Source: Candidatus Omnitrophota bacterium (GTDB taxonomy: Bacteria; Omnitrophota; Gorgyraeia; Zapsychrales; Fredricksoniimonadaceae). Taken from it: 64,000 bases of DNA. Below are positions 31,729-49,530 of the stretch, one piece after another (the stretch's first letter is position 1; the number at the start of each line of letters is the position of its first letter). The notes under the pieces are model-generated. The model was not told where the DNA came from, searched no databases, and saw only the letters and a list, made by a program, of their open reading frames with translations. The stretch lies in assembly GCA_002753465.1 (NCBI GenBank), contig PEAF01000001.1, positions 69,455-133,454 on the forward strand, read 5' to 3'. The translations under genes and the position numbers were made by a program.

Positions 31729-32493
31729 TTATTCTCGGTAAGTTGCGACGCAGTAGAGTGCTCCTACAAAAATAGCCCCGCCAATGATATTCCCTGCCGT
31801 AACGTAGAAAAGATTCCGCATGTAACCGAACCACGTCACGGTATCTCCGTGGGGCGATAAAAGCGAAAGGGCCATCAGTGTCATGTTGGCAATGCTATGC
31901 TCATAGCCGCAGGCGATGAACGCAAAAAGACACCAGAAGATCAGGACGCATTTGCTGATATCATCTTTGGCCCTTCCTGCTGTCCATAAGGCGAGGCAAA
32001 CCAGCCAGTTGCACAGCACACCCCTGAGGAAAAGCTCACTGGCTGGCATGGTCATTTTTGTTGCGGTTACAGTGTTAAGGAAAACGGCGGCATGCTTTAC
32101 AGCGCCCGAATTGACGACCATCCATGCCAGCATAAGGGACCCGATCAGATTCCCTATCCATGAAAGGGCCCATATGCGGCTTAAGTCCAGCCAGGTTGTT
32201 TGACGTTTTAAGAGACCGATCGTCATGTACATGTTGTTCCCGGTAAAAAGCTCAGAGCCGGCGAAAACAACCAAGGTCAGGGCTATGCCGAAAGAGATAC
32301 CCATCAGGGTCTTTAGAAAGATCGAATGCTCTCCTGCCAGTGGGGCTCCGATAGAGAAAATAAGGACGATGCCTAGTCCTACATAGGCGCCGGCAAGGAG
32401 TGAAGCGACAAGGTATGCCAAGGGTGAGCGATTGAGATAGCTGATCTTAGCTTTGGCTAAATTAGCGGCATTGTTGACAGATTCAAGGTACAT
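31729..32493 (-). CDS. Formate/nitrite transporter (FNT) family channel, probably a hydrosulfide/nitrite channel linked to asrABC
   Basis: A six-TM FNT pattern (FAGSELFTGNN, CNWLVCLALW, GYEHSIANM, GNIIGGAIFVG), located directly downstream of asrC. Confidence 0.8.
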   Translation of the reverse strand: MYLESVNNAANLAKAKISYLNRSPLAYLVASLLAGAYVGLGIVLIFSIGAPLAGEHSIFLKTLMGISFGIALTLVVFAGSELFTGNNMYMTIGLLKRQTTWLDLSRIWALSWIGNLIGSLMLAWMVVNSGAVKHAAVFLNTVTATKMTMPASELFLRGVLCNWLVCLALWTAGRAKDDISKCVLIFWCLFAFIACGYEHSIANMTLMALSLLSPHGDTVTWFGYMRNLFYVTAGNIIGGAIFVGALYCVATYRE

Positions 32494-32519
32494 AAAGGTC
32501 CTTTAGAAATTTTCCTACG

Positions 32520-33491
32520 TTATGGTCGAATGCGGTAATGATAGCCCTGGTTTACAGGTAACTGGACCACAGCTTCCGGGTTGAGCGTTATTCCCTCAAG
32601 GATCTCTTGGGTGAAGATATCATAACCGACGCGGTCAATGATGTAGCCGACATGCTCTTTATCCATTGTCCGGTTAATGTGGTTTCCGATAAATGTGTAG
32701 AGGTTCTTGCAGATGGTAAGGACCGTTGTTTCATCTGCACCGCTTATGAAGGTGTCAGCCAGGCGCGGATTGCGCTTCCCTGTTCTTCCTCCGACGATAA
32801 TACGATAAAGGGTTGTTCCACGCGTTAAGGCCGCTACAGGGCATTTCAGGATGCATTCCCCGCAACGAATGCAGTAGGATTCATCCATGGCTCGGGCATG
32901 ATCTTCCATGTAAAGGCAGTTGGTGACCCGGTTGTGGCAGGTATCAACGCAGGCTTCACATCCGATGCAGCGATTTTTCTCAAAAGCCGGAATGACATTG
33001 CCGATGATGCCGATATCATTCATATGCGCCTTGATACAGTCATTGGGGCAACCGGTAAGCGCTATTTTGACATGGTAGTCGTTAGGGTAAATGGACTTCT
33101 CGATCTTTTGCGCCAGCGCGGTCGTATCAAAATTGGCGAAAGGACAGACACGATTGCCGATACAGGCAGAAATGTTGCGCGCGCCAGCGGCGGGATAGCC
33201 CTGTTCAGGCGAGGTTAAGGTTAAACCACATTCCTGCTCGATCGCCGTTAACATGCCTGAAACTGCTTGATTGACGGCTGGCATGTCTTTTAACTGGATG
33301 CCGGGGATCTCATAGCCCTGGCGGATCGTGATATGGACTGAACCGTTGCCAAAGTTTTCGGCGATATGCTGGATCACGGCCAGATGTTTTGCTTGAAGAT
33401 GCCCGCCGGGGACGCGTATGCGCAGGGCAGTCTCTCCCCGTGTCTTGGTGATGCGAAAGGCGTTTTTCCTGACCGCTTTGACGTCGAACAT
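32520..33491 (-). CDS. asrC: Anaerobic sulfite reductase subunit C (siroheme/4Fe-4S)
   Basis: LRIRVPGGHL, a nitrite/sulfite reductase ferredoxin-like half-domain, CPNDCIKAH, and two ferredoxin motifs (CIGCEACVDTC, CIRCGECILKCP). Confidence 0.85.
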   Translation of the reverse strand: MFDVKAVRKNAFRITKTRGETALRIRVPGGHLQAKHLAVIQHIAENFGNGSVHITIRQGYEIPGIQLKDMPAVNQAVSGMLTAIEQECGLTLTSPEQGYPAAGARNISACIGNRVCPFANFDTTALAQKIEKSIYPNDYHVKIALTGCPNDCIKAHMNDIGIIGNVIPAFEKNRCIGCEACVDTCHNRVTNCLYMEDHARAMDESYCIRCGECILKCPVAALTRGTTLYRIIVGGRTGKRNPRLADTFISGADETTVLTICKNLYTFIGNHINRTMDKEHVGYIIDRVGYDIFTQEILEGITLNPEAVVQLPVNQGYHYRIRP

Positions 33492-33501
33492 GCGCGCTCC
33501 T

Positions 33502-34314
33502 CTAATCGATCATATCTTTGGCTTGTTGATAATTAAAGACAGGGCCGTCATTACAGATATATTTGTCATTGATACGGCAGTGGCCGCATTTACCGACGCC
33601 GCATTTCATATGGCGTTCGAATGAAAGCCATATGTTCTGTTCCTGAAGGCCGTGTGACAAAAGTTCTTTAACACAGTTCTCCATCATCCTCGGTGGGCCG
33701 ACCACGATAGCGCGTGAATCCGGGTTCAGGAGGCTGAGGTCCTTAATATAGTTCGTTACAAAGCCGATCTTGCCTTTCCAGGCATCAGCAGGGTCCTCAT
33801 TGGTATCAACGCTCATGACGATATTACAACGTGTGGCCCAGTCTTCCCATATTTTCAGATCTTCTTTAAAAAGGATATGTTTGGGAGAACGGAAACCGAC
33901 AATAATATCCAAATGGCGTAAGGAGCAGGTGTTTTCAGTATGGTAATAGTTAACGATGGCCTTGATCGCGGCAACCGCCGAACCTCCGGCAATGACAATG
34001 AGGTGCTTGCCGAAGAAGTCCGCGATCGGGAATGTATTGCCGTAGGGTCCGCGTACGCCGATGGTATCCCCGATATTCTTTTCAAAGAGAGCCGCCGTCA
34101 CTTCTCCGGCCTTACGGACCGTGATCTCAACTATTTCGCCGTAGAAACCGCTGACAGAAATAGGGACTTCCCCTTCGCCGGGGATAGAAACAATGATGAA
34201 CTTGCCGGGTGCACTGGCGGCCGGGTAAGCCAGGCGAAAGGCCCATTCCAGCGTATTGTGTTTAATGATATCAACGATCTTCGTCGGCGTTGAAGCATAG
34301 ATATTAAGCGGCAT
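33502..34314 (-). CDS. asrB: Anaerobic sulfite reductase subunit B (FAD/NAD-binding, 2Fe-2S)
   Basis: A PyrK/AsrB-like pattern: RGPYGN, LIVIAGGSAVAA, and the C-terminal MKCGVGKCGHCRI cluster. Confidence 0.85.
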   Translation of the reverse strand: MPLNIYASTPTKIVDIIKHNTLEWAFRLAYPAASAPGKFIIVSIPGEGEVPISVSGFYGEIVEITVRKAGEVTAALFEKNIGDTIGVRGPYGNTFPIADFFGKHLIVIAGGSAVAAIKAIVNYYHTENTCSLRHLDIIVGFRSPKHILFKEDLKIWEDWATRCNIVMSVDTNEDPADAWKGKIGFVTNYIKDLSLLNPDSRAIVVGPPRMMENCVKELLSHGLQEQNIWLSFERHMKCGVGKCGHCRINDKYICNDGPVFNYQQAKDMID

Positions 34315-35323
34315 GGTCAGTACTTTCTTTCAAGACGGCATTCATTTTATCGATCGAGCGGAACATGCTGATATACTCCGGACAGACCAGGTCGCATCGG
34401 CCGCAACCGATGCACATTTGTTTGCCCGTTCTTTTTTTGAAATCATTGATTTTGTGCAGGACTTTGTAGCGCATGCGTTCGCCGTTCTTGGTGCGAAAGT
34501 CATGGTTACCGGCAAGGACGGAGAACTTTTTGACATGACAGGCCGACCATATCCTTTGGCGCTCATCCCCTGCTTTTGTCTTTACGTCCCAGATAGAAAA
34601 ACAGGTACATGTCGGACAGGATGTGTTGCAGCGGCCACAGGCAATGCAACGGCGTGAATATTCTTTCCACATGTCATGGTTAAAAATGGTGTTATTGATC
34701 TTTTCAGGGACTGTAACCTGTCGGTGATTGAATGGAACAGGCTTGGGGTTTTCTACCGGAACCTGCTCAAACGGAAAAGCCGAAAGCATTTGGCTATCAC
34801 GTACAAGCCATTCATGGGTATGGCCTTTAGGCCGGATGAACGCGGCGTAATGGTCAGTCTGTGCTGTCCCCATGCTCAGGCAATAACAGTGCTCGAAAGG
34901 TTGAGGGCATTCAAGAAGGACGATCTTCATCTTTGAACGGCGGCGCTGATAATAAATGTCAGGCTGAGTGCCAGAAAGATAGTGCGCATCCATGACCTCG
35001 AGTGCATGAACATCACATGCACGTAGGAATAAAAGCCATGGTTTTCCGGCGTAGGGTGACTCCGTAAGGCCATTACCATCGACTTTGAACATGGTCTCAC
35101 GTACGGGAAACAGGGCTTCTTTAGGAGAAAAGAACGTCTGTTGTGACAAGAATATCTCATCAAAGCTGGCGGGTTCACCGTAGGTGGTTATATCCTGCTC
35201 TGAAAATCGGCTGCCTTTCCTTTTTATTACTGGCGCCCATAAGTGAAAAGCTTCAGACAAGTTGTTAAATACTTGTGTGGATTGTTCAGCGGAAAGATTG
35301 AATGAGTGTGTTGTTTCTGGCAT
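34304..35323 (-). CDS. asrA: Anaerobic sulfite reductase subunit A (4Fe-4S)
   Basis: CIACGRCNTSCPTCTC and CIGCGRCDLVCP ferredoxin motifs. Position and overlap with asrB match the asrABC order. Confidence 0.8.
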   Translation of the reverse strand: MPETTHSFNLSAEQSTQVFNNLSEAFHLWAPVIKRKGSRFSEQDITTYGEPASFDEIFLSQQTFFSPKEALFPVRETMFKVDGNGLTESPYAGKPWLLFLRACDVHALEVMDAHYLSGTQPDIYYQRRRSKMKIVLLECPQPFEHCYCLSMGTAQTDHYAAFIRPKGHTHEWLVRDSQMLSAFPFEQVPVENPKPVPFNHRQVTVPEKINNTIFNHDMWKEYSRRCIACGRCNTSCPTCTCFSIWDVKTKAGDERQRIWSACHVKKFSVLAGNHDFRTKNGERMRYKVLHKINDFKKRTGKQMCIGCGRCDLVCPEYISMFRSIDKMNAVLKESTDHAA

Positions 35324-35325
35324 GG

Positions 35326-35862
35326 TCAGTGTTTCATGAGATCGACGTAGAGTTCTTTGTATTTTTCATGGAGCAGGTTTTGGTCAAATTGTATGAATTC
35401 ATTTAACATGGTTTCCATTTCAGTTTCGCTGAAATACTTCATACATGGGAAAAAGAATGATTTTTCTTCACGTTCGATGTGTTTGGGATAGAAGATCGCC
35501 AGGTTTTCCATGAAGCGCGCTATATCAGCCATGGCGGATTGATCGCCTTTTTGGTATTTTTGGGTTGCTTCCTCTATTTTTGCCACAGTTTGACGGCTCA
35601 TCACGTGCTGCTCTTCAAGCTCGCGCATAGTTTTCTCAAGGTCAGCTGTGAGTGGCTTCTTGGCCAGTTCCCGGAAAAGTATGCCTTCTTCTTTGCCGTG
35701 ATGGCAGCGGTCCGTGTAGGTGCGGATAAAATCAATAGCGCGTTCAATGAAAAGAACGTCAACGGCACCTCCCGCCTTGATACGTTGGGCGTCTTTACCG
35801 ATAACGCCGATCACTTTTTCGATCAGACGGTGTTCTACCATTAATGATCCTGCGACTTGCAT
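35326..35862 (-). CDS. Hemerythrin (HHE cation-binding) domain protein
   Basis: MVEHRLIEKV...CHHGKEEGILF...EEQHV...HIEREEK gives the repeated H/E ligand pattern. Start is set at the internal Met 35862, since the track start at 35931 would overlap the cupin gene. Confidence 0.7.
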   Translation of the reverse strand: MQVAGSLMVEHRLIEKVIGVIGKDAQRIKAGGAVDVLFIERAIDFIRTYTDRCHHGKEEGILFRELAKKPLTADLEKTMRELEEQHVMSRQTVAKIEEATQKYQKGDQSAMADIARFMENLAIFYPKHIEREEKSFFFPCMKYFSETEMETMLNEFIQFDQNLLHEKYKELYVDLMKH

Positions 35863-35881
35863 AGGCGTCCTTTGTGGTCCG

Positions 35882-36205
35882 TTATTTCTTTTCTGCGCCG
35901 GAAAGGCTAAGCAAAAAAGCCAGGTCTTCATCAGCGCTCAGTGAATGGGGTGCGTTCTTCGGCATAAAGATCAAAACACCGGGCACCATTTTGATCGACT
36001 CTCCGTCAAGGATGAACGTCCCGGTGCCCTTAAGGGTTGTGACGACGCCCTCGCGTGTGGATGTGTGTTCTGAAATATCAGAACCTTTAGCCAGGCACAT
36101 CAGCGTATGGTTGGAAGTTTCGCCCTTGGCAATAACCTTGCTGAAAACGCCTTCACGCGGAAATTCCATGATCTCAAACAGATTGCGATGTAATGACGGG
36201 GCCAT
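35882..36205 (-). CDS. Cupin domain protein (107 aa)
   Basis: EHTSTREGVVTTLKGTGTFILDGESIKMVPGVLIFMPKNAPHSL follows the cupin two-motif pattern. Confidence 0.7.
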   Translation of the reverse strand: MAPSLHRNLFEIMEFPREGVFSKVIAKGETSNHTLMCLAKGSDISEHTSTREGVVTTLKGTGTFILDGESIKMVPGVLIFMPKNAPHSLSADEDLAFLLSLSGAEKK

Positions 36206-36306: not shown

Positions 36307-38334
36307 TTAAGCATTATCGAAATCTAGTATGACAATAAATTCACTGCCAATACCAACCTCTGACTGAACGCTAAGGTTGCCTTTCATCAAGTCGGTAAGA
36401 GTTTTAGTGATATAAAGACCAAGTCCTACGCCGCTGCGTTCTTTATTGCCGTCAAACTCATGAAAACGTGTAAAAGGATCAAAGATCTCGGATAATTTAT
36501 CCTTTGGGATGCCAAGCCCAGTGTCTTTAATAGAAAATTTAACACGACATTTACCCTGTTCAGGATGATCATAATGAAGTTGTTCAACACTGACACTGAT
36601 CCTGCCTTCATTCGTGTATTTTACGGCATTACCGATTAGATTGGAAAGGATCTGGTTAAGGCGGATCTCATCTCCTTTGATAAGAGGGATGTTATTGTCA
36701 ATGGATGAAGTGACCGCGATCTCTTTAGCTCCCAGCTCCGCTCTAGCGTGTTCAACGGCTGTCGTGACACACTGTTGAATATTGATCTTCGTGGAGCGCA
36801 GTTCGAGTTTGCCGGATTCGAGTCTTGAAACATCCAGAAGATCCTCAACCAATCCCAAAAGACTTTGGCTTTTCTCGTTAATGATATCAACGTATTTTTT
36901 CTGTTTGTCATTCAATCCACTCGCTTCGAGGATGTTGCTGAAGCCCATGATCGCATGCATCGGCGTCCTGAAGTCATGCGCTATATTGTTTAAGAATTCA
37001 CTTTTGGCCTTGCTCGCGGTTACAGCATCATCTTTGGCCTTTAGCAGGGCCGCTTCAATTTTCTTGCGCTCCGTGATATCGCGGACAAAGGCACAATTAT
37101 GCTCTTCAGAATCAAGCTTAATATAGTTGGCCACGATCTCAACGGGGAATATATGGCCATTCTTGGAGCGCTGCTCCGACTCAAACTTTAGGGATCCGGT
37201 TTTACGCAGTTCGTTGAAATGTTGCGACCAGTTTTGGGAAGTATAGTGGATATCAAAATCAGGTACCGTTAATTGGAGTAATTCATCGCGCGTATAGCTA
37301 AGGGATCGGCATGCAGCTTCATTAACGTCGATAATTGATGCATCCGGGGCTATCCAGAAAAGAGCATCCGACGCGTGTTCAATGCTGAAGCGTGTTAATT
37401 CCAGGGCTTTAAGACTGCTCATTAGTTCTGCCGTACGAACCTGCACAGCACTATGAAGGACCCTGTTCCAGAGAAATAATGCGAGAAATACCAGGATTAC
37501 TGAAATAAAGAAAACTAATAAATAATACAAATGAACCTGGTTTACTATAGGTGCACCTACCCATCGAGTCTCGATTCTTTTCAGTTCTTCAGGAGTGATC
37601 TTGGAAAAGCCGTTCTCAATGAGATGCAGTAGTTCAGCGTTATCTTTATGAACAGCTCTGTGGAATTGACCTACATTCAGAGGTGCCGAGTAATTGAACC
37701 GTTCGTAGACGTTAAGTTTATAAAGAAAATAGAGCGCCGGTGGTTTATCAATAACAAAAACATTAACTTTATGTTCTTTGGCGGCCTGAATAATGGCTTC
37801 GTAACTGTCAAAAAACAATAAATTATCAACGCTATTGCGTTTAAGGACATCTACAGCGTCATCACCTTTCTTGACAGCAACGGCAAAACCACGCAAGGAC
37901 GCCGCATTCGTAATGCCCGAGATATCTTTATCAAAAAAGATGGGGACTTCAAGCTTGGCGTATGGCGATGTAAAATCAAGCCATTTTGATCTCTGCGGCG
38001 TTTGGAATATTGTATCGATGACGTCAAATTCACCTGCCTCCATGGCATTCAAGGCTTTCCCCCAATCCATGGCATGGATCTCAACTTTTATACCTGTTTT
38101 CTGTTCCCACAAGCGCCATTGATCAATCAGGATGCCCTGTTGCATGCCGTCATTGTTCTTAAAACTATAAGGAGGATAGGCGTCGTCCATGACGACCTTG
38201 ATGGATTGAGGGGTAGCTTTTGCCGTGGGAGCAATTAATACAGATAAAGCTATAAATGTAAGTATGCCAAGAATATGGCAGAAATTTCGCATGAGAGGCA
38301 TCCGTTCAAAGTTGAATCTGAAGTATGACAACAA
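36307..38334 (-). CDS. Sensor histidine kinase: periplasmic solute-binding (SBP_bac_3-like) domain, TM, PAS, HisKA, HATPase
   Basis: IKVVMDDAYPPYSF and DVIDTIFQTPQR mark the SBP-like part. A TM segment (YYLLVFFISVILVFLALFLW) and a PAS domain follow, then the H-box NIAHDFRTPMH and GVGLGLYITK. The 38334 start is TTG; alternative ATGs lie at 38301 and 38292. Confidence 0.85.
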   Translation of the reverse strand: MLSYFRFNFERMPLMRNFCHILGILTFIALSVLIAPTAKATPQSIKVVMDDAYPPYSFKNNDGMQQGILIDQWRLWEQKTGIKVEIHAMDWGKALNAMEAGEFDVIDTIFQTPQRSKWLDFTSPYAKLEVPIFFDKDISGITNAASLRGFAVAVKKGDDAVDVLKRNSVDNLLFFDSYEAIIQAAKEHKVNVFVIDKPPALYFLYKLNVYERFNYSAPLNVGQFHRAVHKDNAELLHLIENGFSKITPEELKRIETRWVGAPIVNQVHLYYLLVFFISVILVFLALFLWNRVLHSAVQVRTAELMSSLKALELTRFSIEHASDALFWIAPDASIIDVNEAACRSLSYTRDELLQLTVPDFDIHYTSQNWSQHFNELRKTGSLKFESEQRSKNGHIFPVEIVANYIKLDSEEHNCAFVRDITERKKIEAALLKAKDDAVTASKAKSEFLNNIAHDFRTPMHAIMGFSNILEASGLNDKQKKYVDIINEKSQSLLGLVEDLLDVSRLESGKLELRSTKINIQQCVTTAVEHARAELGAKEIAVTSSIDNNIPLIKGDEIRLNQILSNLIGNAVKYTNEGRISVSVEQLHYDHPEQGKCRVKFSIKDTGLGIPKDKLSEIFDPFTRFHEFDGNKERSGVGLGLYITKTLTDLMKGNLSVQSEVGIGSEFIVILDFDNA

Positions 38335-38336
38335 TA

Positions 38337-38702
38337 TTATCTCCCGATCAGCTGGTGGATTTTGTTGAGGATTAAATTATGGTCCTTCATTTTTGAGACT
38401 GCCGGATAGTTTTGGTCTTTGACAGGGATGATCACGTTCTCACTCGCCGTAACTGACGTTAGGAAAATAATGGGGACATCTTTTAGGGATTCAATTTCTC
38501 TTATTTGAGTAACTGTTTCCACGCCGTCAAGCTCGGGCATGATGACATCCATCAAAATAAGATCAGGTTTTATGCTGTTAGCTTTTTCGACCCCCGCCGC
38601 ACCATTGTCAGCAATGGAGACGTCGTAACCTGCTTTTGTAAGAACAAGCTTGATCATGCGGGAGTAGTCTTTAGTATCATCAATGATCAATATCCTCTTC
38701 AT
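38337..38702 (-). CDS. Stand-alone response regulator receiver (CheY-like)
   Basis: ILIIDDTKD, LILMDVIMPELDG, FLTS, and no output domain. Confidence 0.85.
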   Translation of the reverse strand: MKRILIIDDTKDYSRMIKLVLTKAGYDVSIADNGAAGVEKANSIKPDLILMDVIMPELDGVETVTQIREIESLKDVPIIFLTSVTASENVIIPVKDQNYPAVSKMKDHNLILNKIHQLIGR

Positions 38703-39094
38703 TTAAGGTCTCCGTAGTAAAGTTGTTTTTCAACTTTGGCATACAGGATCTCAGGTGATATTGGTTTTGTCATGTAATCATTAGCGCCGCAGGCTTCTGC
38801 TTTTTGTGGTATACCTTCAACACTTGCTGTTGCAAGGATAACGCGGGTGCTGTCATTGCCTTGTGTGGCCCTGATCCGGCTTGCAATAGTTTTTGCGTCG
38901 ATATCAGGCAGATGATAATCTAGAATAATCAGATCAAGTTTATTGGCCATAGCGACCTCGATGCCTTGCGTCCCGTTTATAGCCGTCAGTACATCATATC
39001 CTCTGGCTTTAAGACGGTAAACCAGGATTTTCAGCACATCGACCTCATCATCAATAATGAGTATTTTCTTAAGCATACGGAGACCGTCTGTCAA
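38699..39094 (-). CDS. Stand-alone response regulator receiver (CheY-like)
   Basis: ILIIDDEVD, LIILDYHLPDID, ILATA, MTKP. An alternative start is Met 39076. Confidence 0.85.
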   Translation of the reverse strand: MTDGLRMLKKILIIDDEVDVLKILVYRLKARGYDVLTAINGTQGIEVAMANKLDLIILDYHLPDIDAKTIASRIRATQGNDSTRVILATASVEGIPQKAEACGANDYMTKPISPEILYAKVEKQLYYGDLK

Positions 39095-41558
39095 CGAACA
39101 AGAGCTGGAAATGAAAGGAGGATCCTTTACCCGGTTCAGATTCGGCCCATATTTTTCCGTGATGCAGTTGTATTATTTCCCTTGAGATGGCAAGTCCAAG
39201 CCCTGTCCCTCCCGGTTTCCTGTTATTAAGGTCATGCAATTGCTGGAAGCTGTGGAAGAGTTTGGGGATATCATCTTGTTTGATACCAGGACCGGTATCT
39301 TCAATAATAACGTGCACCATATTTTCCTCTTTTATACCGCGTATCTTAATGCTGCCATGGTCAGTAAATTTGATGGCATTGTTGACCAAGTTCGTCATAA
39401 CCTGAACGATCTTGTCACGGTCAAAGTTTATATCCGGGATCGACGGATCACATTCAGTCGTTAATTCCAGCTGCTTCTGGCGTGCCATGAGGACCATAGC
39501 ACCGGCGACTTCATGAATAACATCACAGATAGAGTTTTCACGTAGATCAAAAGACATTCGCCCTGATTCAAGTTTTTGAAAATCAAGGACATTGTCAATA
39601 AGTCGATGCAACCGGTCAGCATTGCTTTTAACAATGTTCAATAAGTCCCTTTGTTCCTGATTGATATCACCCACTAATCCATCAAGGATAATGCCAGCAC
39701 CTTCTTTGATAGGCCCTAGTGGGGTCCGTAATTCATGAGAGACCATTGAAGTGAATTCAGACTTAATGGCTACAGCTTTCGTTATGTTTTCTATCGCCTT
39801 CTTACGCTGCGTTATATCTTTGATAATGTGGACTGATCCGGTAAGATTCCCCTTATTGTCAATGATGGGAGATGTCGAGACTTCCAGATAAAGATTGAAA
39901 CAAGGTTCAAAGTATTCGACGTGTTCGGGTTTGTGACTGAGCATTGTTTTTTTGTGGGGGCAGTCAGTTGCAGGACATGTTGTACTGTGAACAATGGAGA
40001 AACATTTCTTGCCGATTATTTCTTCAAGGGACAGCTTAAAGAAGTTGGCGTAGGCTGTGTTCACCCTGACGATGTTGAAATCTATATCGTGGATAGAGAT
40101 CAGGTCCGGGATGGCATTAAAGGTTGTTTCCCACTCGTGGGCTTTGATAGCCAACTGTTCACGCAGATATTTCTCTTGAGTGATGTCTTCCATAACACAA
40201 ACATAATTTGTTATTTGACCTTGCCCATCGGTAACAGCCGAGATCGATGCAATAACCCAAAAGAAATCCCCATTTTTCTTTTTATTGTTAAGTTCGCCGC
40301 TCCACTCACGTCCTGCCAGGATCGTATCCCAAAGATCTTTATAGAATTCAGCGGGTTGATGACCTGATTTCAGTATGCTCATGTCCTTTCCAAAAACCTC
40401 AGCAAAGTCATACCCGGTCAATTGTGTGAATTTTGGGTTAACGTATTCGATTTTCCCCCGCGTGTTCGTGATCACGATCGTCGCAGGACTTTGCTCTACT
40501 GCGCGCATGAGTTGGCTAATCATTTTGCCTAACTTCTTCTGGACCGTTAGGGCGTAAAGGATAAAGATGCCGAAAGTAAGAGCAAATAATAAAATTATAG
40601 TGTAAGTAACAATTAGCCCTGTAAGGGCGGCATCCCTTTTAAGGAAAGCTTTGGCAGCAGATTGTGTAACAATGACTCCCCAACCGTACTCACTGACCGG
40701 TTCATAAGCAGTAACACGATCTTTATGTTCTATACGAATTGAGTCTATGGAGGCTTTCGCATGGCCTGCCAAAAGGTCGAGAATTAAAGGGTCGCTATGA
40801 AGATCGACGACTTTCATTTTATCGCTCGAGCTCGTTGCATTGATGGCTTGACCGCTCTGATCGACAATGTAAATTGCGCCAGACTCGCCTTTATCAATAT
40901 CTTGGAGCCAAATATAAAAGAAATCTGGCTTAAATTGGAGTTGAAGGATGGCGGAGGTCAGGGCCGGTTGATTTATTGGAGCAGATGGATCGGGTTGAAT
41001 AACAGAGCGTTTATGTTTAATAGGTATGCTAACAGAAACAATATAAACGTCAGGCTTAAATCTGCTTTGATAAAATGACGACACATGCGGCGCTCCTTGC
41101 CGGGTAATGTTTTGATACCAGTTGCTATTAACCTTATTTTGGCCTATATCAGCCGTGTTAGAGGAAGGTATAGCCGCCCTGATCGTTCCCTGAGGATCAA
41201 TCAGAAGAATGCGGTCTAAGAAAGAGAATTGGTCAAGAACATCACTGACATTGGCAAGGGCTTCAGGCCAATTACCGTTTTCAACCCCTTCGATGGTCAG
41301 TTTTCTGGCAGCTAATGAAATACCGAGATTAACAAAGTCATTCAGACGCTCGTGAACGAGGGTTGCCGCAAGGTGAGCAATGGTTTTTCTTTGGACTAGT
41401 AGATCATTTGTCGTTTCATGGTAAGTTCGAGCGTAATTAATGGCACCCAGGCAGACGATCGGCACAAGGAAACAAAAAAGCAAGGTGCTTCTGTAAAACG
41501 TGACTTTGGAGCCGCCGCTTAAGTTATCAATAAGTTTTTCTAAGAAACTAGTGCGCAT
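39069..41558 (-). CDS. Sensor histidine kinase: Cache-like extracytoplasmic domain, TM, two PAS, HisKA, HATPase
   Basis: An N-terminal TM, a roughly 300-aa sensor domain and a second TM (IVTYTIILLFALTFGIFILYAL). PAS blocks follow (IVITNTRGKIEYVNPKFTQLTGY), then the H-box VSHELRTPL and GTGLGLAISREI. Confidence 0.85.
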   Translation of the reverse strand: MRTSFLEKLIDNLSGGSKVTFYRSTLLFCFLVPIVCLGAINYARTYHETTNDLLVQRKTIAHLAATLVHERLNDFVNLGISLAARKLTIEGVENGNWPEALANVSDVLDQFSFLDRILLIDPQGTIRAAIPSSNTADIGQNKVNSNWYQNITRQGAPHVSSFYQSRFKPDVYIVSVSIPIKHKRSVIQPDPSAPINQPALTSAILQLQFKPDFFYIWLQDIDKGESGAIYIVDQSGQAINATSSSDKMKVVDLHSDPLILDLLAGHAKASIDSIRIEHKDRVTAYEPVSEYGWGVIVTQSAAKAFLKRDAALTGLIVTYTIILLFALTFGIFILYALTVQKKLGKMISQLMRAVEQSPATIVITNTRGKIEYVNPKFTQLTGYDFAEVFGKDMSILKSGHQPAEFYKDLWDTILAGREWSGELNNKKKNGDFFWVIASISAVTDGQGQITNYVCVMEDITQEKYLREQLAIKAHEWETTFNAIPDLISIHDIDFNIVRVNTAYANFFKLSLEEIIGKKCFSIVHSTTCPATDCPHKKTMLSHKPEHVEYFEPCFNLYLEVSTSPIIDNKGNLTGSVHIIKDITQRKKAIENITKAVAIKSEFTSMVSHELRTPLGPIKEGAGIILDGLVGDINQEQRDLLNIVKSNADRLHRLIDNVLDFQKLESGRMSFDLRENSICDVIHEVAGAMVLMARQKQLELTTECDPSIPDINFDRDKIVQVMTNLVNNAIKFTDHGSIKIRGIKEENMVHVIIEDTGPGIKQDDIPKLFHSFQQLHDLNNRKPGGTGLGLAISREIIQLHHGKIWAESEPGKGSSFHFQLLFVDRRSPYA

Positions 41559-41579
41559 TGGGACTCCCGGGGAAAATAT

Positions 41580-43718
41580 TTAAGCGTGAACGCGCTTATT
41601 CCTTGCTAAAAGCATTTTAACTCTCGCCAGCAATTTGTCTTTATCATAAGGTTTGGTGATGTAGTCGTCAGCCCCAGCGTCGAGTCCGGACAACTCGTCG
41701 TCTTTTTCTTTTAATGCAGTCAAAAGAATGATCGGAATTGATGCTGTTGTTAATTGAGCACGCAATACCCGTGTCGCTTCAAGCCCGTCCATTTTGGGCA
41801 TGGTCACATCCATGATGATCAGGTCTGGCTTCATACGGATAGCTTGCTCAACAGCTTCTTCCCCGTTTCTGGCTTTAACAGTTTCATAGCCTGTGGCGCG
41901 CAGGCGCAGATCAAGAACTGTCAGAAGGCTTTCCTCATCATCAACGATAAGGATCTTGGCTATTGACTTGGGAGATGAGGATTGGTTGTAAGCATTTTCA
42001 GTAATATCTTGTTCTGATCTGGTGATATCGACTACCCTGGAGATTTCATCTATCGTTGTTAAACCCTGAATAACCTTTTTGGCGGCAAATTCGGCTAATG
42101 TTTGAAGGCCGTTCTTTCTGGCCTCAGCATAGATCGTATTTTCACTGGCGTGATGACCGATCAGATCCCGGATCGCTGGGTTGACTTCCATAATCTCAAA
42201 GACAGCCGTCCTGCCAAAGTAGCCTGAGAAATTACATTCCTGGCAACCTTTGCCGCGGTAGAACATTGTTGGCAGAATTTGATTTGAGAAATGTTGCAGC
42301 CTGGCCAGTTCATCGGCATTAGGCGCATAAGACTCGCGGCAATGAGGGCAGATCAGTCTGACTAGGCGCTGCGCAATGACAATGATGAGTGAAGAAGATA
42401 TCAGGTAAGGTTCGAGACCAATATCGAGCAAGCGCGTAACAGAAGCTACGGCGTTATTGGTGTGTAGGCTTGAGAGAACAAGGTGTCCTGTTTGCGATGC
42501 ACGGAAAGCAATGTCAGCTGTTTCCCGGTCACGGATCTCACCAACAAAGATGACATTAGGGTCCTGACGAAGTATGCTGCGTAAACTTGAAGCAAAGGTC
42601 ACATCTTTTTGCGGGTTCAACTGGATCTGATTGATACCGTCGATCAAGTATTCGATAGGATCCTCGATCGTAATGATCTGCTTAGTTTCGTTTCTGATAA
42701 AAGTAAGCGCTGCGTATAAGGTTGACGTTTTACCTGAACCAGTGGGGCCGGTCACGAGGATCATGCCCTGGGATTTCAGCAGGGCATGATGCAATTTATT
42801 AAGTTCTTCTTTCTCAAATCCGATCTTCTCAAGGCTGCTTTTGGCCTGTTCTTTATCTAAGAGACGGATAGCGATCTTTTCGCCGTAAAATGTTGGAGCG
42901 ACAGCCAGGCGTATGTCGATATCTCGTGCATTGATGCGCATCTTGATACGGCCATCCTGCATTTTCCGTGTTTCAGCGATATCAAGATCTGCCAGGACCT
43001 TGATGCGAGATGATAGCCTGGGTAAAATGTTTAAAGGTATTTTAATGATGCTTTTCAGGTACCCGTCAATGCGGTATCTGACATCCACACACCCCTCACG
43101 GGGTTCGATGTGGATATCGGTGGCGCGCATCCTGACGGCATCACCCAGGAGCACAGATAGCAAGTGTATGACCGGAGAGTTGTCATCCTGTTCAGACTTG
43201 ATATCAATAACTCGGGTCCTACTGCCATCTTCTTTTACTAACTGGATTGTATTAGTAGAATTAACATTTTTCAGGATGTCATAAATACTGTCATCGATCT
43301 GATAGTCTTCAGTTAAAAGCTTGGAGATTTCAGCACGTGTTGCCAGGATCACTTTAACTGTAAGGCCGGTAATGGCACAAATATCATCGATGGCCATGAT
43401 GTCAGACGGATCGCTCATGGCTAGAGTAAGCTCATTATTATTTTGATCAACCGGAAAAACTCCGTACTTCTTGGCGAGTTCAGGTGAAATAAGTTTTAGG
43501 AAGGAACGATCTGGCTTGGAGTTTGGAACATAACGCGGCAATTGAAATCTTTTAACCAGCACAGTGGTCAGCACTTCTTCAGTAACGAATCCCATTTCAA
43601 CAAGGAGTTCTGTCAAGGGTCTTTTGGCCCCGGCTTGCTTGTCGCGCACGTCCTGAGCCTGGTCGCGCGTGATCAGGCTTTCCTGGATCAATGTTTGAAG
43701 TAAAGTAGGCAATGTCAT
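41580..43718 (-). CDS. GspE/PilB-family secretion ATPase with an N-terminal T2SSE_N/MshEN-like domain and a C-terminal response-regulator receiver
   Basis: Walker A is GPTGSGKTST, Walker B is IFVGEIRD and the His box is GHLVLSSLHTNNA. The Cys motif is CPHC...CQEC. The C-terminal receiver carries KILIVDDEE, IIMDVTMPKMDG, LLTAL and ITKP. Confidence 0.85.
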   Translation of the reverse strand: MTLPTLLQTLIQESLITRDQAQDVRDKQAGAKRPLTELLVEMGFVTEEVLTTVLVKRFQLPRYVPNSKPDRSFLKLISPELAKKYGVFPVDQNNNELTLAMSDPSDIMAIDDICAITGLTVKVILATRAEISKLLTEDYQIDDSIYDILKNVNSTNTIQLVKEDGSRTRVIDIKSEQDDNSPVIHLLSVLLGDAVRMRATDIHIEPREGCVDVRYRIDGYLKSIIKIPLNILPRLSSRIKVLADLDIAETRKMQDGRIKMRINARDIDIRLAVAPTFYGEKIAIRLLDKEQAKSSLEKIGFEKEELNKLHHALLKSQGMILVTGPTGSGKTSTLYAALTFIRNETKQIITIEDPIEYLIDGINQIQLNPQKDVTFASSLRSILRQDPNVIFVGEIRDRETADIAFRASQTGHLVLSSLHTNNAVASVTRLLDIGLEPYLISSSLIIVIAQRLVRLICPHCRESYAPNADELARLQHFSNQILPTMFYRGKGCQECNFSGYFGRTAVFEIMEVNPAIRDLIGHHASENTIYAEARKNGLQTLAEFAAKKVIQGLTTIDEISRVVDITRSEQDITENAYNQSSSPKSIAKILIVDDEESLLTVLDLRLRATGYETVKARNGEEAVEQAIRMKPDLIIMDVTMPKMDGLEATRVLRAQLTTASIPIILLTALKEKDDELSGLDAGADDYITKPYDKDKLLARVKMLLARNKRVHA

Positions 43719-44095
43719 GCGTGTTCTTTTTTTTGAAGGATCGCATTGATCGTACTGATCAGTTCAACGGCATCATATGGCTTCTCCATAAAGCCGGCAA
43801 CCTCGTTATCAAGCAGTAATCGGCGCTTAAGTTCAGCGTCATGGCTGGCCGTTAACACGAGGACAGGTATTGACCTTGTTTTAAACCCTAACTTAAGGTT
43901 TCGCAGGACAGATTCTCCACCGCCGGCCGGCAGCATGATGTCTAGAATGATCATGTCTGGATTTTCACTCTTGGCAAGGATCAACCCCTGATAGGCATCA
44001 ATGCCCCATACAGGTTCAAAGCCTGATCCAAATAAACGATCTTGCAGGACTTTCGCAAATGAAGGATCATCTTCGATTATTAGGATCTTTTTCAT
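43715..44095 (-). CDS. Stand-alone response regulator receiver (CheY-like)
   Basis: ILIIEDDPS, MIILDIMLPAGGG, VLTAS, MEKP. The stop overlaps the ATPase start. Confidence 0.85.
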   Translation of the reverse strand: MKKILIIEDDPSFAKVLQDRLFGSGFEPVWGIDAYQGLILAKSENPDMIILDIMLPAGGGESVLRNLKLGFKTRSIPVLVLTASHDAELKRRLLLDNEVAGFMEKPYDAVELISTINAILQKKEHA

Positions 44096-44377: not shown

Positions 44378-44737
44378 TTATTGTTTTTTGTTCCTATTTA
44401 AAAGGCAAAAGTGAAAAAGCTTAAGATATGTATTCTGATCAGCAGGGTCGTCGCTTTGAAAATGTACGCCGGTTTCAAAGAGCCTGTTCTTGTAAATAGA
44501 TGATGACCAGGCCGCGACGCCTTCCATATGAAGAGGCCCGTCCTGTGGAAGGTCGACCAAAATAGAGACCGGATCACCCCGTTTAAAATTAACGCCACCC
44601 ATAATTCTACACCCATGGTGATGGATATCCGTCAGTTCAGCCTGGTTGTAAGGCTTAAACGAGCTATTCTTATCACGGTATTTAGCTTCAAGAACTACGG
44701 GTATCCTCTCAGATTGTCTATGCTCAGCGGTTAACAT
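44378..44737 (-). CDS. PilZ domain protein (variant motif)
   Basis: RQSER (RxxxR) is followed about 26 residues later by DIHHHG, where the canonical motif is D/NxSxxG. AGGAGG SD. Confidence 0.65.
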   Translation of the reverse strand: MLTAEHRQSERIPVVLEAKYRDKNSSFKPYNQAELTDIHHHGCRIMGGVNFKRGDPVSILVDLPQDGPLHMEGVAAWSSSIYKNRLFETGVHFQSDDPADQNTYLKLFHFCLLNRNKKQ

Positions 44738-45974: not shown

Positions 45975-47266
45975 AAAAGAGGTTCAAGAAATTCATATTT
46001 TGATTTTGGTTTGTTAGGCTTTTCATCTGTTGTCGCTTTTGCGAACGACTTGATCTCATGATCATTGCTCAGTGTCTGCTTAAATAGATCTTTCCACCGA
46101 TAGCTCTTACATTTAGATTTGGCATCGGTGATCAACTGCTTGTAAATAGAGATGGCCCTTTCGGCTGATCTTGGCATTGTAAAAGCCGTGGCGGTAGCTT
46201 TGGCGGCATGACAAAGCTCTGAGCGTTCTATTCCTGACATTGAAAAGTATTTTGCAATGGCATTAGCAAAGTCCTGTTCATTATCCTGTGCGATCAGGAA
46301 ACCATTGTATTTATCACGTGCTATATCCCGTACACCGGGTGCATCCACAGCGACAACAGGTATGCCGGCGGCCATAGATTCGAGGATCACCAGTCCCTGC
46401 GTTTCACTATGGGAGGCAAATGTAAAGATATCCATGGCATGATAAGCGTCTATCAGGTCTTGTCCGTGAAGCGTCCCGGCACAAAACAATCTGTTTGATA
46501 CACGATGATGCTGAAAAAATTCTTTTATAGCAGTCTCTAAAATCCCTTGCCCGACAACCAGGAATACAGCAGTTTCATTTATTTGAAGGAAGCGCATTAT
46601 GCCGCGCATTAGAAAATCAATATTCTTCTCCGGTGCCAGCCGACCAGCTGTTCCTATGACGAAAACGTCAGGATTTATCCCGAGCCGTTTACGCAATGCG
46701 GCGGCATTATTAACCTTGAAATGATCGGGGTATATTCCCGTCGGGATAACTTCAATGGGCCGGTTAACGCCGCGTTGTTTAATTAGGGCTGCGATGCTTT
46801 CACTGGGAGCAAAGACGTAATCGCATGCGTTGGCATACCTTGTTGCCATGGCAATAAGAAACCGTTTCATCAAGCTTGAATTAAGGGGTACATAATGCGT
46901 GTTTTCTTCATAAAGAGAGTGATGGGTGAAGATCACCGGGATCGTGCACTGTGAAGCGATCCTCAAGGCTGTATTCCCGACAAGGAAAGGGTGATGCGCG
47001 TGAACGATATCCGGATTGAATGTATTAATGACTTTCGATAGTTTGAAATATATTGGCAGTTCTATGGAGAAATTGGTTTTGTTAACGTTCTTGATCGCGG
47101 GGATACGGAACACTCCTTTTTCATGTGCCGGTGAGCCTTGCTGCTCAGGGGCTACGATAAGTACTTCGTGCCCCATGACGCGGTACTCATGCGAAAAATA
47201 TTCGATCGAACGCTCCAGTCCGCCTATGATCGGTCGATATGTATTGGTCATCATAAGTATTCTCAT
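45962..47266 (-). CDS. Family 4 glycosyltransferase (GT4, GT-B fold)
   Basis: MRILMMTNTYRPIIGGLE, GRLAPEKN and ETQGLVILESMAAGIPVVAVDAPG. I chose start 47266, which gives an ATGA overlap with the upstream stop; the track start is 47281. Confidence 0.8.
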   Translation of the reverse strand: MRILMMTNTYRPIIGGLERSIEYFSHEYRVMGHEVLIVAPEQQGSPAHEKGVFRIPAIKNVNKTNFSIELPIYFKLSKVINTFNPDIVHAHHPFLVGNTALRIASQCTIPVIFTHHSLYEENTHYVPLNSSLMKRFLIAMATRYANACDYVFAPSESIAALIKQRGVNRPIEVIPTGIYPDHFKVNNAAALRKRLGINPDVFVIGTAGRLAPEKNIDFLMRGIMRFLQINETAVFLVVGQGILETAIKEFFQHHRVSNRLFCAGTLHGQDLIDAYHAMDIFTFASHSETQGLVILESMAAGIPVVAVDAPGVRDIARDKYNGFLIAQDNEQDFANAIAKYFSMSGIERSELCHAAKATATAFTMPRSAERAISIYKQLITDAKSKCKSYRWKDLFKQTLSNDHEIKSFAKATTDEKPNKPKSKYEFLEPLFWPD

Positions 47267-49530
47267 GGGTGTCCCGTCCATTCTAAAGTTATCGTATGCG
47301 TACCTTGGGGAACGGTAACAACTTTTGAGTTCAAGATCTTTACTTCAATAAGAGGTTCACGGGCATACCAATGTCCCGTCCAGGAGACAATGACATTTGA
47401 TGGACCCGGAGTTAAGGTGATCTCCACATTTCCAAATGAAGTCGGTGCGGGGCCGAAGGATATGTTTTTGCCTTTCTCAAACCATGATCGCGGTATGCCG
47501 GAGCACAGGATAAGCCTGTCATTTTCTTCTCGTATAAAACAATTCCTGATCATGAGGACCCACTCCGCTGCCGCCCATACATGTTGTCCGTCACCCATAC
47601 ATCCCCCGCCCGTGGCCGGGTGGATCGCCTCAGGCCATTGTCCTGTGGACGAGGCAAGATTCGCCACCGTTGACATGAGATCGAGAAACCTCGGGTCTTC
47701 AGCACGCAGGAGTGCCTGGGCTATGTGCAGGGTCAAGTAAGGGTTTATCCCTGAATGGGTCATGTCATGGAAGAATCCTCCTTTGATCAAACAATGTTGC
47801 ATAAGAAAATTCAGTGTATCCTTCAGACGAGGATCATCGGGTTTGATAAGCCGAAGGGGGTGGCCGGCTACCAGCGACCCGATAGCCCCTGTATCCATAC
47901 GGCGATAGACAGATGCCGGCATCGCCGCTCTTTGCAAGCGTTGTGCGACTTTAAGAAGACTTTGGTCAATGGTAAGGGACAGGGATTCGGCCTCATTCTT
48001 GAAGCGTATGCTAAGGTCCTGGTCTTTGTAGGCTTCACATAAAAAAGCAGCGGCATTCAGGCCAGCAACAGCCCAGAAATCATCCCAGTAATAGAAATCA
48101 TTGGGTCCTAGGTGCTCAGCACTGAAGCCGGATGGTAAAAGGCCGGCATGCTTGAATTTAAGGGTCTTGGGTAAGCGTTTCTTGCAGATCCAGCGGCCGG
48201 CTTTAATGATCGATTCTTTCCACGCTTTAGGGGGTGGCTGATCTGTCATTTGACAATATTGCTGCATGATCCATAAGGCTTCACCATTAGAATCCCACTC
48301 GCCTTCCTGCGACAGAAAGTATCCTTCGCGGGTTTGCCTTGAACGGAACTGATCAAGGGCTAGCCGGACACGTTCTTTGAAGCCTGCAACAAGTAAGGCA
48401 TACAGGATAAATGTAGCGTCACGGAACCAGAAACGGCGGTAAATAAATGGTCCCGGGTAGACCTCTTTTGGACAGTGCAGGACCATGGTGCGAATAGCTG
48501 CTTCATAAAGGAACTGCCAATATGTATCCGGGATCTTTAAAGGACTTTCCTCTTGAAGATTTTTCTTCCATAAGAAGTGAGGTGATACATGGCCGGAAGA
48601 TGAATTGTTGTGAGCATTATGATTGCCTAATGGTATCTGAACTGTGATCGAGCGAGTAACTCCCCCGTAAATACTATACAAAGCAGCTGACGTAGCCATA
48701 CCTACCTTGCACCAGACGTGGTCTGAAGGTGTTTTTGAGTGCAAAGACCTTAAAACATCCCCGTCATGATAATAAGAAAATTCGCACTGCTCGATCGGGG
48801 GATCAAAATAAACATGCTCTTTGCGGTTCACAAGCAATCCTTTACGGTCTTTTTGTAGGGCGATATCATGGATGAAAATAACACCTTCAGGATTGTATGG
48901 TCTTAGAGAGATCGCCACTTTACCTGCGCCAGGGGCATTGGCATAAATCTCGATGCGGCAAACAGGGTCCGTCGCTGCCCCATCCATTTTAACAATGGAT
49001 CTTAAAGTACAATTTTCATGGGTACATTCAGTGACGACACGAAGTCCATCGACAAAGTCAAGTTTCTGCTGAACATTGATAAGTCTTGAAGGGAGCAATG
49101 GTTTTTCATCCAAAGGAAGAATCCAGGCATCGATGGACCATCCATTGTAAATAGGTGTCACAAGGCCGCGCGGGTCAACGATCGGATACTGTGCACAATC
49201 AGGAAGCCCTACTGCGGTCCAATTCCGATGTGTGAGATTGATCTGTGTAAGCGAGAAGGCTCGAGGGATAAAGGCCTTGTTGCGGGGATTATATTGGCAC
49301 TCGACCCAATAAGGCCAAACCCAATCAAGATTGTGCTGGATCGCAAGGCTGTTAATGAGGCCGCGGGCATGCAGAATAACGCCGGAGCGTAATAATTCAG
49401 TCGGGGCTGTTACTTCAGAGGGTTGCGCAAAGTTCTGCAATTGGGAAAAAAGCTTGATAGGGTCAAGGAATCCCTGCTGCTGTGCGGCAGATCGTAGAAG
49501 GAATTTCCATGGAAACCATCGCCACCACAT
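47263..49530 (-). CDS. Six-hairpin (alpha/alpha)6 glycoside hydrolase-like protein (GDE_C / GH15-like)
   Basis: FWFRDATFILYALLVAGF, EGEWDSNGEALWIMQQYCQMTDQ and YYWDDFWAVAGL are typical of amylo-alpha-1,6-glucosidase or glucoamylase-type barrels. The N-terminal half is beta-rich. Confidence 0.55.
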   Translation of the reverse strand: MWWRWFPWKFLLRSAAQQQGFLDPIKLFSQLQNFAQPSEVTAPTELLRSGVILHARGLINSLAIQHNLDWVWPYWVECQYNPRNKAFIPRAFSLTQINLTHRNWTAVGLPDCAQYPIVDPRGLVTPIYNGWSIDAWILPLDEKPLLPSRLINVQQKLDFVDGLRVVTECTHENCTLRSIVKMDGAATDPVCRIEIYANAPGAGKVAISLRPYNPEGVIFIHDIALQKDRKGLLVNRKEHVYFDPPIEQCEFSYYHDGDVLRSLHSKTPSDHVWCKVGMATSAALYSIYGGVTRSITVQIPLGNHNAHNNSSSGHVSPHFLWKKNLQEESPLKIPDTYWQFLYEAAIRTMVLHCPKEVYPGPFIYRRFWFRDATFILYALLVAGFKERVRLALDQFRSRQTREGYFLSQEGEWDSNGEALWIMQQYCQMTDQPPPKAWKESIIKAGRWICKKRLPKTLKFKHAGLLPSGFSAEHLGPNDFYYWDDFWAVAGLNAAAFLCEAYKDQDLSIRFKNEAESLSLTIDQSLLKVAQRLQRAAMPASVYRRMDTGAIGSLVAGHPLRLIKPDDPRLKDTLNFLMQHCLIKGGFFHDMTHSGINPYLTLHIAQALLRAEDPRFLDLMSTVANLASSTGQWPEAIHPATGGGCMGDGQHVWAAAEWVLMIRNCFIREENDRLILCSGIPRSWFEKGKNISFGPAPTSFGNVEITLTPGPSNVIVSWTGHWYAREPLIEVKILNSKVVTVPQGTHTITLEWTGHP

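Follow-up and report, generated by a model that had tools for sequence, protein, structure and literature searches.

What is a motor of the pilus-assembly kind doing among sensor kinases and receivers, with no pilus or secretion gene beside it? The question is raised by a 64-kb stretch, hereafter the window, of the 138,858-bp contig PEAF01000001.1 from a Candidatus Omnitrophota bacterium, on whose minus strand a list of open reading frames (ORFs) gives six tightly packed genes at 36307–44095. They encode, in order, a stand-alone receiver of 126 amino acids (aa; REC-A, 43715–44095); a 712-aa PilB/GspE-family assembly ATPase with an MshEN-T2SSE-receiver layout (ATPase-REC, 41580–43718); an 829-aa dCache-PAS-PAS kinase (HK1, 39069–41558); a second stand-alone receiver of 131 aa (REC-B, 38699–39094); a third, atypical one of 121 aa (REC4, 38337–38702); and a 675-aa SBP-PAS kinase (HK2, 36307–38334). 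An earlier note on this DNA took the ATPase for an orphan embedded in a phosphorelay operon, its orphan status holding for these 64 kb. We argue that the enzyme is probably still a filament motor, and that its fused receiver would be the point at which the neighbouring kinases control it.

An assembly ATPase with a fused receiver

ATPase-REC matches three Pfam families, T2SSE (PF00437; 5.5e-132), Response_reg (1.4e-28) and MshEN (7.2e-17), which resolve along the minus strand into an MshEN-like N1 domain (residues 1–150; 43269–43718), an N2 and catalytic C-terminal domain (residues 176–562; 42033–43193) with its Walker A motif GPTGSGKT at 42726–42749, a flexible linker of low identity and low predicted local distance difference test (pLDDT) score (residues 563–586; 41961–42032), and the fused receiver (residues 587–712; 41583–41960), whose predicted phospho-acceptor is D637 (codon 41808–41810). 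Walker A, the Asp box, Walker B with its catalytic Glu, the His box and the CxxC...CxxC pair are all present. We compared the protein with its best 120 matches, at 49–72% identity, from a 5.8-billion-protein collection: the Walker A and B motifs, Asp box, His box and zinc cysteines (C457, C460, C492 and C495) are invariant or nearly so throughout, so that the intact Walker A, Walker B, His box and tetra-Cys motifs described in the earlier note prove to be a property of the family. The enzyme keeps everything needed by an active assembly ATPase and, to judge from these motifs, looks catalytically competent.

The best matches in the Protein Data Bank are Geobacter PilB structures (5zfr, 6olj and 5tsg; E 1e-128 to 1e-132 over residues 6–563), followed by Myxococcus PilB and then by Thermus PilF and Vibrio GspE/EpsE; PilT-type retraction ATPases match far more weakly (1e-38 versus 1e-132). 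Because the N1 domain and the tetra-Cys zinc motif are present and the PilT matches are so much weaker, we place ATPase-REC by its sequence in the assembly (extension) branch of the T2SSE (PilB/GspE/PilT) superfamily, not with PilT. An AlphaFold2 model built from 85 homologues (mean pLDDT 87.9) has a disordered stretch at residues 574–583 (pLDDT <50) between the ATPase and a (beta-alpha)5 receiver, and its core superposes in Foldseek on PilF/PilB with TM scores of 0.90–0.93 at ~2.2 Å. Among the fold matches, none of the solved structures of this ATPase family contains a receiver.

The fusion in sequence databases

All 120 of the best homologues share the MshEN, T2SSE and Response_reg architecture. 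Those with names come mostly from Candidatus Omnitrophota, with a few from Elusimicrobia, Firestonebacteria, Auribacterota and 'Margulisiibacteriota'; the closest, at 72% identity, belongs to an Omnitrophota metagenome-assembled genome (MAG). An exhaustive search covered 1.84 billion representatives clustered at 50% identity: T2SSE is followed by at least one C-terminal receiver in 93 of the top 150 representatives examined and a receiver stands at the N terminus in 5, Pfam confirming the fusion architecture in nine of the ten representatives tested. A further search, started from a 43%-identical representative, recovered this layout from Syntrophobacterales, Acidobacteriota and Nitrospirota MAGs, in some of whose proteins a double zinc ribbon lies between ATPase and receiver.

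The fusion is therefore common in uncultured bacteria, not rare, and the proteins usually carry the automatic annotation 'type IV pilus assembly protein PilB'. We found no description of a PilB/GspE–receiver fusion in the open-access full-text literature, and a 2024 review of PilB regulation contains neither the word 'receiver' nor the word 'fused'. To the earlier note's concern that the architecture might be common and already characterised, the database survey answers yes on the first count and the open-access literature no on the second.

Several variants of the architecture turned up in the course of these searches: three receivers behind one ATPase (1081 aa); an ATPase with a double zinc ribbon and a receiver (about 770–820 aa); and proteins of roughly 1000 aa with two tandem T2SSE domains, some of them from Patescibacteria. 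Such variants are represented by P0141, by P0125/P0130/P0286, and by P0127 and relatives. A 49%-identical copy on an Omnitrophota contig (L011, 9953–11413) lacks a receiver and is broken into two ORFs (323 and 162 aa), perhaps as a pseudogene, perhaps through an assembly error.

Relatives encoded with a platform and pilins

We examined the genomic context of the family in ten homologue neighbourhoods with precomputed Pfam matches and in 119 loci whose ORFs were labelled by phmmer seeds. Two settings emerged. In the first, which we call the main clade (the window, L001, L002, L004–L007 and L085–L088, with L008 a bare orphan), a small receiver gene stands upstream of the ATPase gene, and PAS or dCache kinases and further single receivers follow downstream. 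The flanking genes differ from locus to locus, being tRNA synthetase, V-type ATPase or hydrogenase-like genes elsewhere and methyltransferase and sulfite reductase genes in the window. What is conserved across Omnitrophota-type genomes is a cassette of REC-A, ATPase-REC, one or more extracytoplasmic sensor kinases and REC-B; HK2 is absent from the closest relative's cassette, and neither HK2 nor REC4 is conserved in relatives.

In the second setting, the basal subclade (L084, L089 and L090, with identical copies L091, L093, L096 and L097), the fused ATPase gene heads an operon with T2SSF (GspF/PilC), a GspG-like N_methyl pilin, two pilin-like genes and a gene for a ~385-aa PilX_N-type protein. 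One of these loci, L090, additionally holds a hybrid kinase, a REC-B orthologue, a PilT-like ATPase and a GGDEF protein; no gene for GspL/M, C or D was seen even in these operons. In a control count, a T2SSF gene lies within 5 kb downstream of the ATPase in all three basal-subclade loci and in none of the 11 main-clade loci; among non-fused PilB/GspE loci with enough flank, the figure is 44 of 56.

Phylogeny ties the two settings together. The trees are neighbour-joining trees without support values and are indicative only; in that of the ATPase core (207 sequences, 134 REC-fused and 73 non-fused, over 382 columns), every one of the 134 fused cores falls in a single clade that none of the 73 non-fused ATPases enters, and under midpoint rooting the platform-linked subclade is its earliest branch. 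When the 150 representatives are added, a 125-tip clade takes in 90 of the 91 representatives with a C-terminal fusion and every one of the 13 members sampled from the window's family; only 19 of its tips lack a detectable receiver. In a tree of receivers, the fused domains form one clade and the upstream receivers of nine main-clade loci (REC-A) another; orthologues of REC-B occur in nine other loci, two of them in the basal subclade.

The fused receiver has a mean identity of 62–63%, equal to that of the catalytic domain, and the linker, which varies from 15 to 56 residues across the family, only 13–17%; motor and phospho-switch alike are under purifying selection, with a flexible tether between them. 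In every domain, basal and main members are as identical to each other as main members are among themselves, and a family-specific N1 signature (P34, Q/H36, M42-G43-F44 and E47) is common to basal and main members. At the level of sequence, the kinase-embedded enzymes show no sign of functional change after leaving the platform operon.

Two further loci, both on MAG contigs (L064, 878–4356; L080, 7432–12015), have a histidine kinase, one or two receivers, a non-fused MshEN-T2SSE protein and T2SSF in a row. As candidate unfused ancestors of the system they were rejected, their ATPase cores grouping with unrelated PilBs. In Candidatus Gygaella obscura (L002/L003, 1617–9558) a complete V/A-type ATPase operon directly precedes the cassette. 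F-type ATPase genes have been reported to adjoin type IVa pilus clusters in Omnitrophota (Seymour et al., PMC10066038); the adjacency in Candidatus Gygaella obscura may be coincidence.

A probable filament motor under proposed kinase control

We favour, at a probability of roughly 0.6, a genuine motor of filament assembly that the neighbouring kinases gate at D637 and that serves a platform encoded elsewhere. The earlier note had offered two options, a regulated motor of a machine encoded elsewhere and a motor repurposed as a signalling output, and the first is the one to which the evidence leans, because members of the same clade lie upstream of GspF/PilC and pilin genes and the kinase-embedded members show no relaxed constraint. 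The history probably ran as follows: a receiver was added to the C terminus of a PilB/GspE-type ATPase via a flexible linker of about 25 residues, and in most of the clade the gene then moved from its platform/pilin operon into a sensory cassette. In the source genome the ATPase would power a type IV pilus or a pseudopilus like that in a type II secretion system (T2SS), the platform and pilins being encoded elsewhere; pili are to be expected, since type IVa pilus clusters have been reported from almost every Omnitrophota genome (PMC10066038). HK1 and/or HK2 would use their dCache and SBP domains to detect extracellular ligands and would phosphorylate D637, thereby switching hexamer activity or platform engagement without transcription. 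REC-A and REC-B may compete for phosphoryl groups or serve as sinks, or may act on the motor, in a manner resembling PilG/PilH or PixG/PixH; and since the N-terminal motif is degenerate family-wide, phosphorylation may have replaced cyclic di-GMP (c-di-GMP) as the motor's input.

Several observations weigh against this reading. The partner machine is assumed, not seen, because platform and pilin genes are absent near the main-clade loci: among window ORFs of at least 110 aa, Pfam found no T2SSF, N_methyl pilin, secretin or peptidase A24 match, and no class III signal motif was seen in those of 60 aa or more, which bears out the earlier note's statement that the 64 kb hold no platform, pilin, secretin or prepilin peptidase gene; nor does any such gene lie within 10 kb of the ATPase in the 11 main-clade loci. 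A metagenome scan built on an alignment of three basal-subclade T2SSF proteins, and limited to two peptide patterns, revealed no platform-plus-pilin operon lacking its own ATPase; the T2SSF relatives that it found all adjoin an ATPase gene. The close ones always adjoin a REC-fused one, a point in favour of the link to a filament machine. ATPase-REC sits in the assembly-ATPase branch but in neither curated orthologue group, scoring 580.9 bits against the NCBIfam PilB equivalog TIGR02538 (cut-off 675.65) and 556.4 against the GspE equivalog TIGR02533 (cut-off 630.25). The trees, as noted, are indicative only. Omnitrophota also hold ordinary, non-fused PilB beside T2SSF (directly in L059, and in L022, the closest relative of L020), so that their pili may not need the fused enzyme, which might then be a supernumerary paralogue with another role. 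By contig prefix, no REC-fused Omnitrophota locus pairs with a non-fused one from the same genome, which speaks neither for nor against this.

These same absences speak for a repurposed signalling ATPase, that is, a main-clade enzyme that is no longer a filament motor but an output, or an energy-dependent step, of a two-component network. The missing platform and pilin genes, the scores below both equivalog cut-offs and the non-fused PilB beside T2SSF would all sit comfortably with it, as would the cluster's upstream neighbours, which encode a GT4 glycosyltransferase, a methyltransferase and a PilZ protein; and there is precedent in Myxococcus PilB, for which a signalling role in exopolysaccharide control has been reported (PMC5544727). 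That PilB, however, remains a working pilus motor. The conserved catalytic and zinc motifs, an N1 signature identical to that of basal members encoded with platform and pilins, and the lack of acceleration in any domain after relocation all argue against repurposing, which we regard as unlikely, if the strongest of the alternatives. More doubtful still is a main-clade hexamer uncoupled from any filament and serving ultra-small, host-dependent bacteria as the phosphorylation-gated ATPase output of a two-component network.

The receivers and the kinases

Gating at D637 presupposes a receiver that can be phosphorylated. Aligned with E. coli CheY, all four receivers of the cluster have the residues equivalent to D13, D57, T87 and K109. 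REC-A (Pfam Response_reg 1.9e-15) presents E12, D13, D57, T87, K109 and P110, with E at position 12, and REC-B (3.7e-20) has the full set of phospho-acceptor residues. In the fused receiver the corresponding D593, D594, D637, T667, K689 and P690 are invariant or nearly so among the 120 homologues, and its Tyr switch residue is conserved. The earlier note had read a DD...D...T...K pattern in this domain and had staked its proposal on the acceptor Asp; proper alignment places that Asp where it was expected, and by these residues the fused receiver keeps everything required for aspartyl phosphorylation.

The receiver might instead serve for docking or localisation, or as a phosphate sink, comparable to the receivers of FimX or TadZ/CpaE, and not a phosphorylation switch at all. 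Its linker is long and flexible, the nearby stand-alone receivers could be the true regulators, and the FimX receiver, which lacks the acceptor Asp, still localises pilus assembly (PMC11656802). Unlike that of FimX, however, the fused receiver retains its acceptor Asp, acidic pocket, Thr, Lys-Pro and Tyr switch residues in 120 homologues, and kinases are encoded in the same cassette; we consider any of these alternatives improbable.

REC4 (Pfam Response_reg 2.3e-20) is the atypical member of the set: it keeps the acceptor Asp but has K-M in place of K-P, an Ala at the position of the Tyr106 switch and a divergent alpha4-beta5 region, and its sole close relative in the receiver tree is a receiver of L004. 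It may act as a sink or as a pseudo-output.

Both kinases are, on their domain matches, class I HisKA sensor histidine kinases. HK1 has two PAS stretches, HisKA (1.6e-15) and HATPase_c (9.6e-30), preceded by a dCache_1 match (1e-8) that falls below the curated cut-off; hydrophobic segments at residues 25–43 and 321–339 flank the Cache region, and the H-box reads SHELRTPL. HK2 matches SBP_bac_3, PAS, HisKA (1.4e-20) and HATPase_c (8.7e-27), with hydrophobic segments at residues 18–36 and 271–289 flanking the sensor domain and an H-box reading AHDFRTPM. Since two hydrophobic, putatively transmembrane segments bracket each sensor domain, both should be extracytoplasmic.

Pfam found no Hpt domain in the six genes and no receiver on either kinase. 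The cluster is a multi-kinase, multi-receiver two-component system, not a strict His-Asp-His-Asp phosphorelay, and the earlier note's 'phosphorelay operon' was a loose term, given that neither an Hpt domain nor a hybrid kinase is present; hybrid kinases do occur in the loci of some relatives. The branched or sink-type relay that the note suggested for four receivers and two kinases is plausible. Pfam matched no CheA-type kinase, CheW or MCP in the window, the ORFs covered being those of 110 aa or more. Chemosensing independent of Che proteins is a possible role for the cassette: its ligand-binding dCache and SBP kinases would then act straight on the pilus motor by phosphorylation and so trigger host attachment.

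The N-terminal domain and c-di-GMP

The MshEN motif, RLGxxLLxxGLLxxxxLxxxLxxQ, occurs twice in a binding domain with five residues between the copies, and imperfect motifs can still bind c-di-GMP (PMC5013675). In the window, motif I reads T-L-L...S...A...R...Q (R to T and G to L) and motif II P-L-T...G...L...L...R (R to P, G to T and Q to R); spacing and hydrophobic positions are preserved in both, and the turn glycine G43 and Q28 are retained. The earlier note's account of the partly conserved motifs therefore stands for the hydrophobic positions, the one Gly and the lost Arg and Gly, and needs amending for Gln, one of which (Q28) is also kept. Across the 120 homologues the Arg position of motif I is variable and its Gly position is I, L, T, F or V; in motif II, Arg has become Pro in 114 of 120 and Gly has become Gln or His in 109 of 120, and the final Gln has become Val or Ile. 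The Arg and Gly that contact the guanines are thus substituted in both repeats, in the window and in essentially all homologues, and for that reason canonical c-di-GMP binding by the N1 domain is unlikely.

This bears directly on the idea that c-di-GMP is the main input, acting through the MshEN domain and perhaps through a PilZ protein encoded 282 nt upstream of REC-A. The Pfam MshEN match, the PilZ gene (44378–44737), the tolerance of imperfect motifs (PMC5013675) and a GGDEF gene near one relative speak for it; the substitution of the Arg and backbone-donating Gly of both motifs in essentially every homologue and the failure of a single-seed search to label a PilZ gene in 87 other loci make it very unlikely.

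The PilZ-domain protein itself (119 aa, same strand as REC-A; Pfam 6.7e-09), on which the earlier note is silent, has the RxxxR motif, as RQSER, and DIHHHG where DxSxxG is expected. PilZ proteins are known partners of PilB in Xanthomonas and Pseudomonas. Following the single-seed result, it was rejected as a part of the system.

Cohesion of the gene cluster

Re-reading the sequence returned the same ORF coordinates and junctions (-4, 21, overlapping, -4 and 2 nt) as the earlier note. The stop codon of REC-A and the start of ATPase-REC overlap by 4 nt in a common ATGA, which implies translational coupling; a 21-nt gap separates ATPase-REC from HK1 and contains a GGGAG ribosome-binding site 7 nt 5' of the HK1 start; HK1 overlaps REC-B, REC-B and REC4 meet at -4 nt, and 2 nt separate REC4 from HK2. 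Promoter and terminator counts in the cluster are near shuffled expectation, and we did not use that scan as evidence. The single transcription unit proposed earlier looks real, because the cassette recurs amid unrelated flanking genes in relatives.

That the six genes are chance neighbours or separate transcription units without a functional link, as sigma-70-like matches inside the cluster, a hairpin over the ATPase stop codon and the lack of conservation of HK2 and REC4 might suggest, is most improbable given junctions of -4 to 21 nt, a REC-A/ATPase spacing of -4 to about +15 nt in nine loci with unrelated flanks, and promoter and terminator counts so close to shuffled expectation.

The hairpin (TAAGCGCGTTCACGCTTA; 41581–41598, minus strand) has a 6-bp stem, spans the ATPase-REC stop codon within the 21 nt that precede HK1 and could dampen expression of the kinases downstream; its T tail is weak and the regional terminator count equals shuffled expectation.

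Comparison with known systems

ATPase-REC is closest to PilB (5tsg, 5tsh and 5zfr; Myxococcus xanthus 3jc8; Thermus PilF), with which it shares the N1(MshEN)-N2-CTD (C-terminal domain) layout, the catalytic and zinc motifs, ~44% identity in the core and a TM score of 0.90–0.93; it differs in its C-terminal receiver, its degenerate c-di-GMP motif, its score below the TIGR02538 cut-off and the lack of pilC, pilT or pilin neighbours. With GspE/EpsE it shares the superfamily and the CxxC...CxxC zinc motif, and its basal relatives are encoded with GspF-like and GspG-like (T2SSG) genes; the fused receiver, a score below the TIGR02533 cut-off and the absence of GspL/M, C and D from the basal operons set it apart. 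MshE-type ATPases such as Vibrio cholerae MshE and PA14_29490 likewise take a signalling input through an accessory domain and have the same N-terminal fold family (PMC5013675), whereas the input domain here would be a C-terminal phospho-receiver and the c-di-GMP motifs lack Arg and Gly.

Three routes of control are known for the motors of type IV pili and T2SSs: c-di-GMP (MshEN, FimX–PilZ), separate CheY-like proteins and transcription (PilSR). PilG/PilH in Pseudomonas, PixG/PixH and the PATAN receivers that bind PilB1 in Synechocystis, and DrdR in Xanthomonas are cases in which receiver domains control the PilB or PilT protein itself (PMC11181946; bioRxiv 10.1101/2021.06.11.447907; PMC13507683; PMC10519157). 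The cluster resembles these systems in having several receivers with possibly antagonistic roles. In them, however, the receivers are separate proteins and the kinases of CheA type; here one receiver is covalently fused, the kinases are ordinary transmembrane HisKA sensors, and there is no CheA, CheW or MCP gene in the window. Like PilS–PilR, the cluster would pair sensor kinases with a response regulator devoted to type IV pili. PilR activates pilin transcription with sigma-54, whereas the output domain here is the motor itself, so that control would be post-translational. TadZ/CpaE and FimX also build a receiver fold into a pilus-assembly protein. The TadZ/CpaE receiver is atypical, lacks phospho-acceptor chemistry and acts in localisation; in ATPase-REC, unlike TadZ/CpaE and FimX (PMC11656802), the acceptor residues are conserved.

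If the enzyme is a gated filament motor, a receiver covalently joined to it and conserved along with dedicated sensor kinases would offer the shortest route from an environmental signal to pilus extension, and one polypeptide with acetyl phosphate or BeF3- would make a simple in vitro system for regulatory gating of a PilB hexamer. Omnitrophota pili have been proposed to mediate attachment to host cells. Given the prevalence of the fusion in this phylum and that proposed role, the cassette is a concrete candidate for how uncultured Omnitrophota nanobacteria decide when to deploy pili. What is new is that a known motor has, within a conserved cassette, an undescribed regulatory input covalently attached. 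In practice the novelty is modest, since databases already contain many proteins of this architecture under the name PilB and the mechanism is inferred.

Other genes of the window

Directly downstream of HK2, on the minus strand at 31729–35931, lie genes for a hemerythrin-domain protein, a formate/nitrite-family transporter and an anaerobic sulfite-reductase-like trio (Fer4_22; NAD_binding/DHODB Fe-S; NIR_SIR), which together suggest an anaerobe with sulfite or nitrite metabolism. On the other side of the cluster, a 755-aa protein (47263–49530, minus strand) has no Pfam match and a faint match to oligosaccharide amylases, and two HSP20 genes, a TPR protein gene and HtpG (49582–54751, minus strand), upstream of GT4 glycosyltransferase and methyltransferase genes, look like a stress-chaperone cluster.

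The region 4900–27415 has an unusual concentration of radical SAM enzymes: six grouped as B12-binding (4900–6390, 15448–16815, 18615–20003, 22421–23839, 25997–27415 and 6915–8015, the last radical-SAM-only) and two radical SAM/SPASM proteins (23840–25985). Between them lie genes for two PMT_2 glycosyltransferases, one methyltransferase and a PQQ/BamB-repeat protein of 1199 aa. The region may be a locus for modification of the cell envelope or of lipids. Towards the ends of the window are genes for an MraW-like protein (1544–2599) and a KdpC-like protein (62019–62597).

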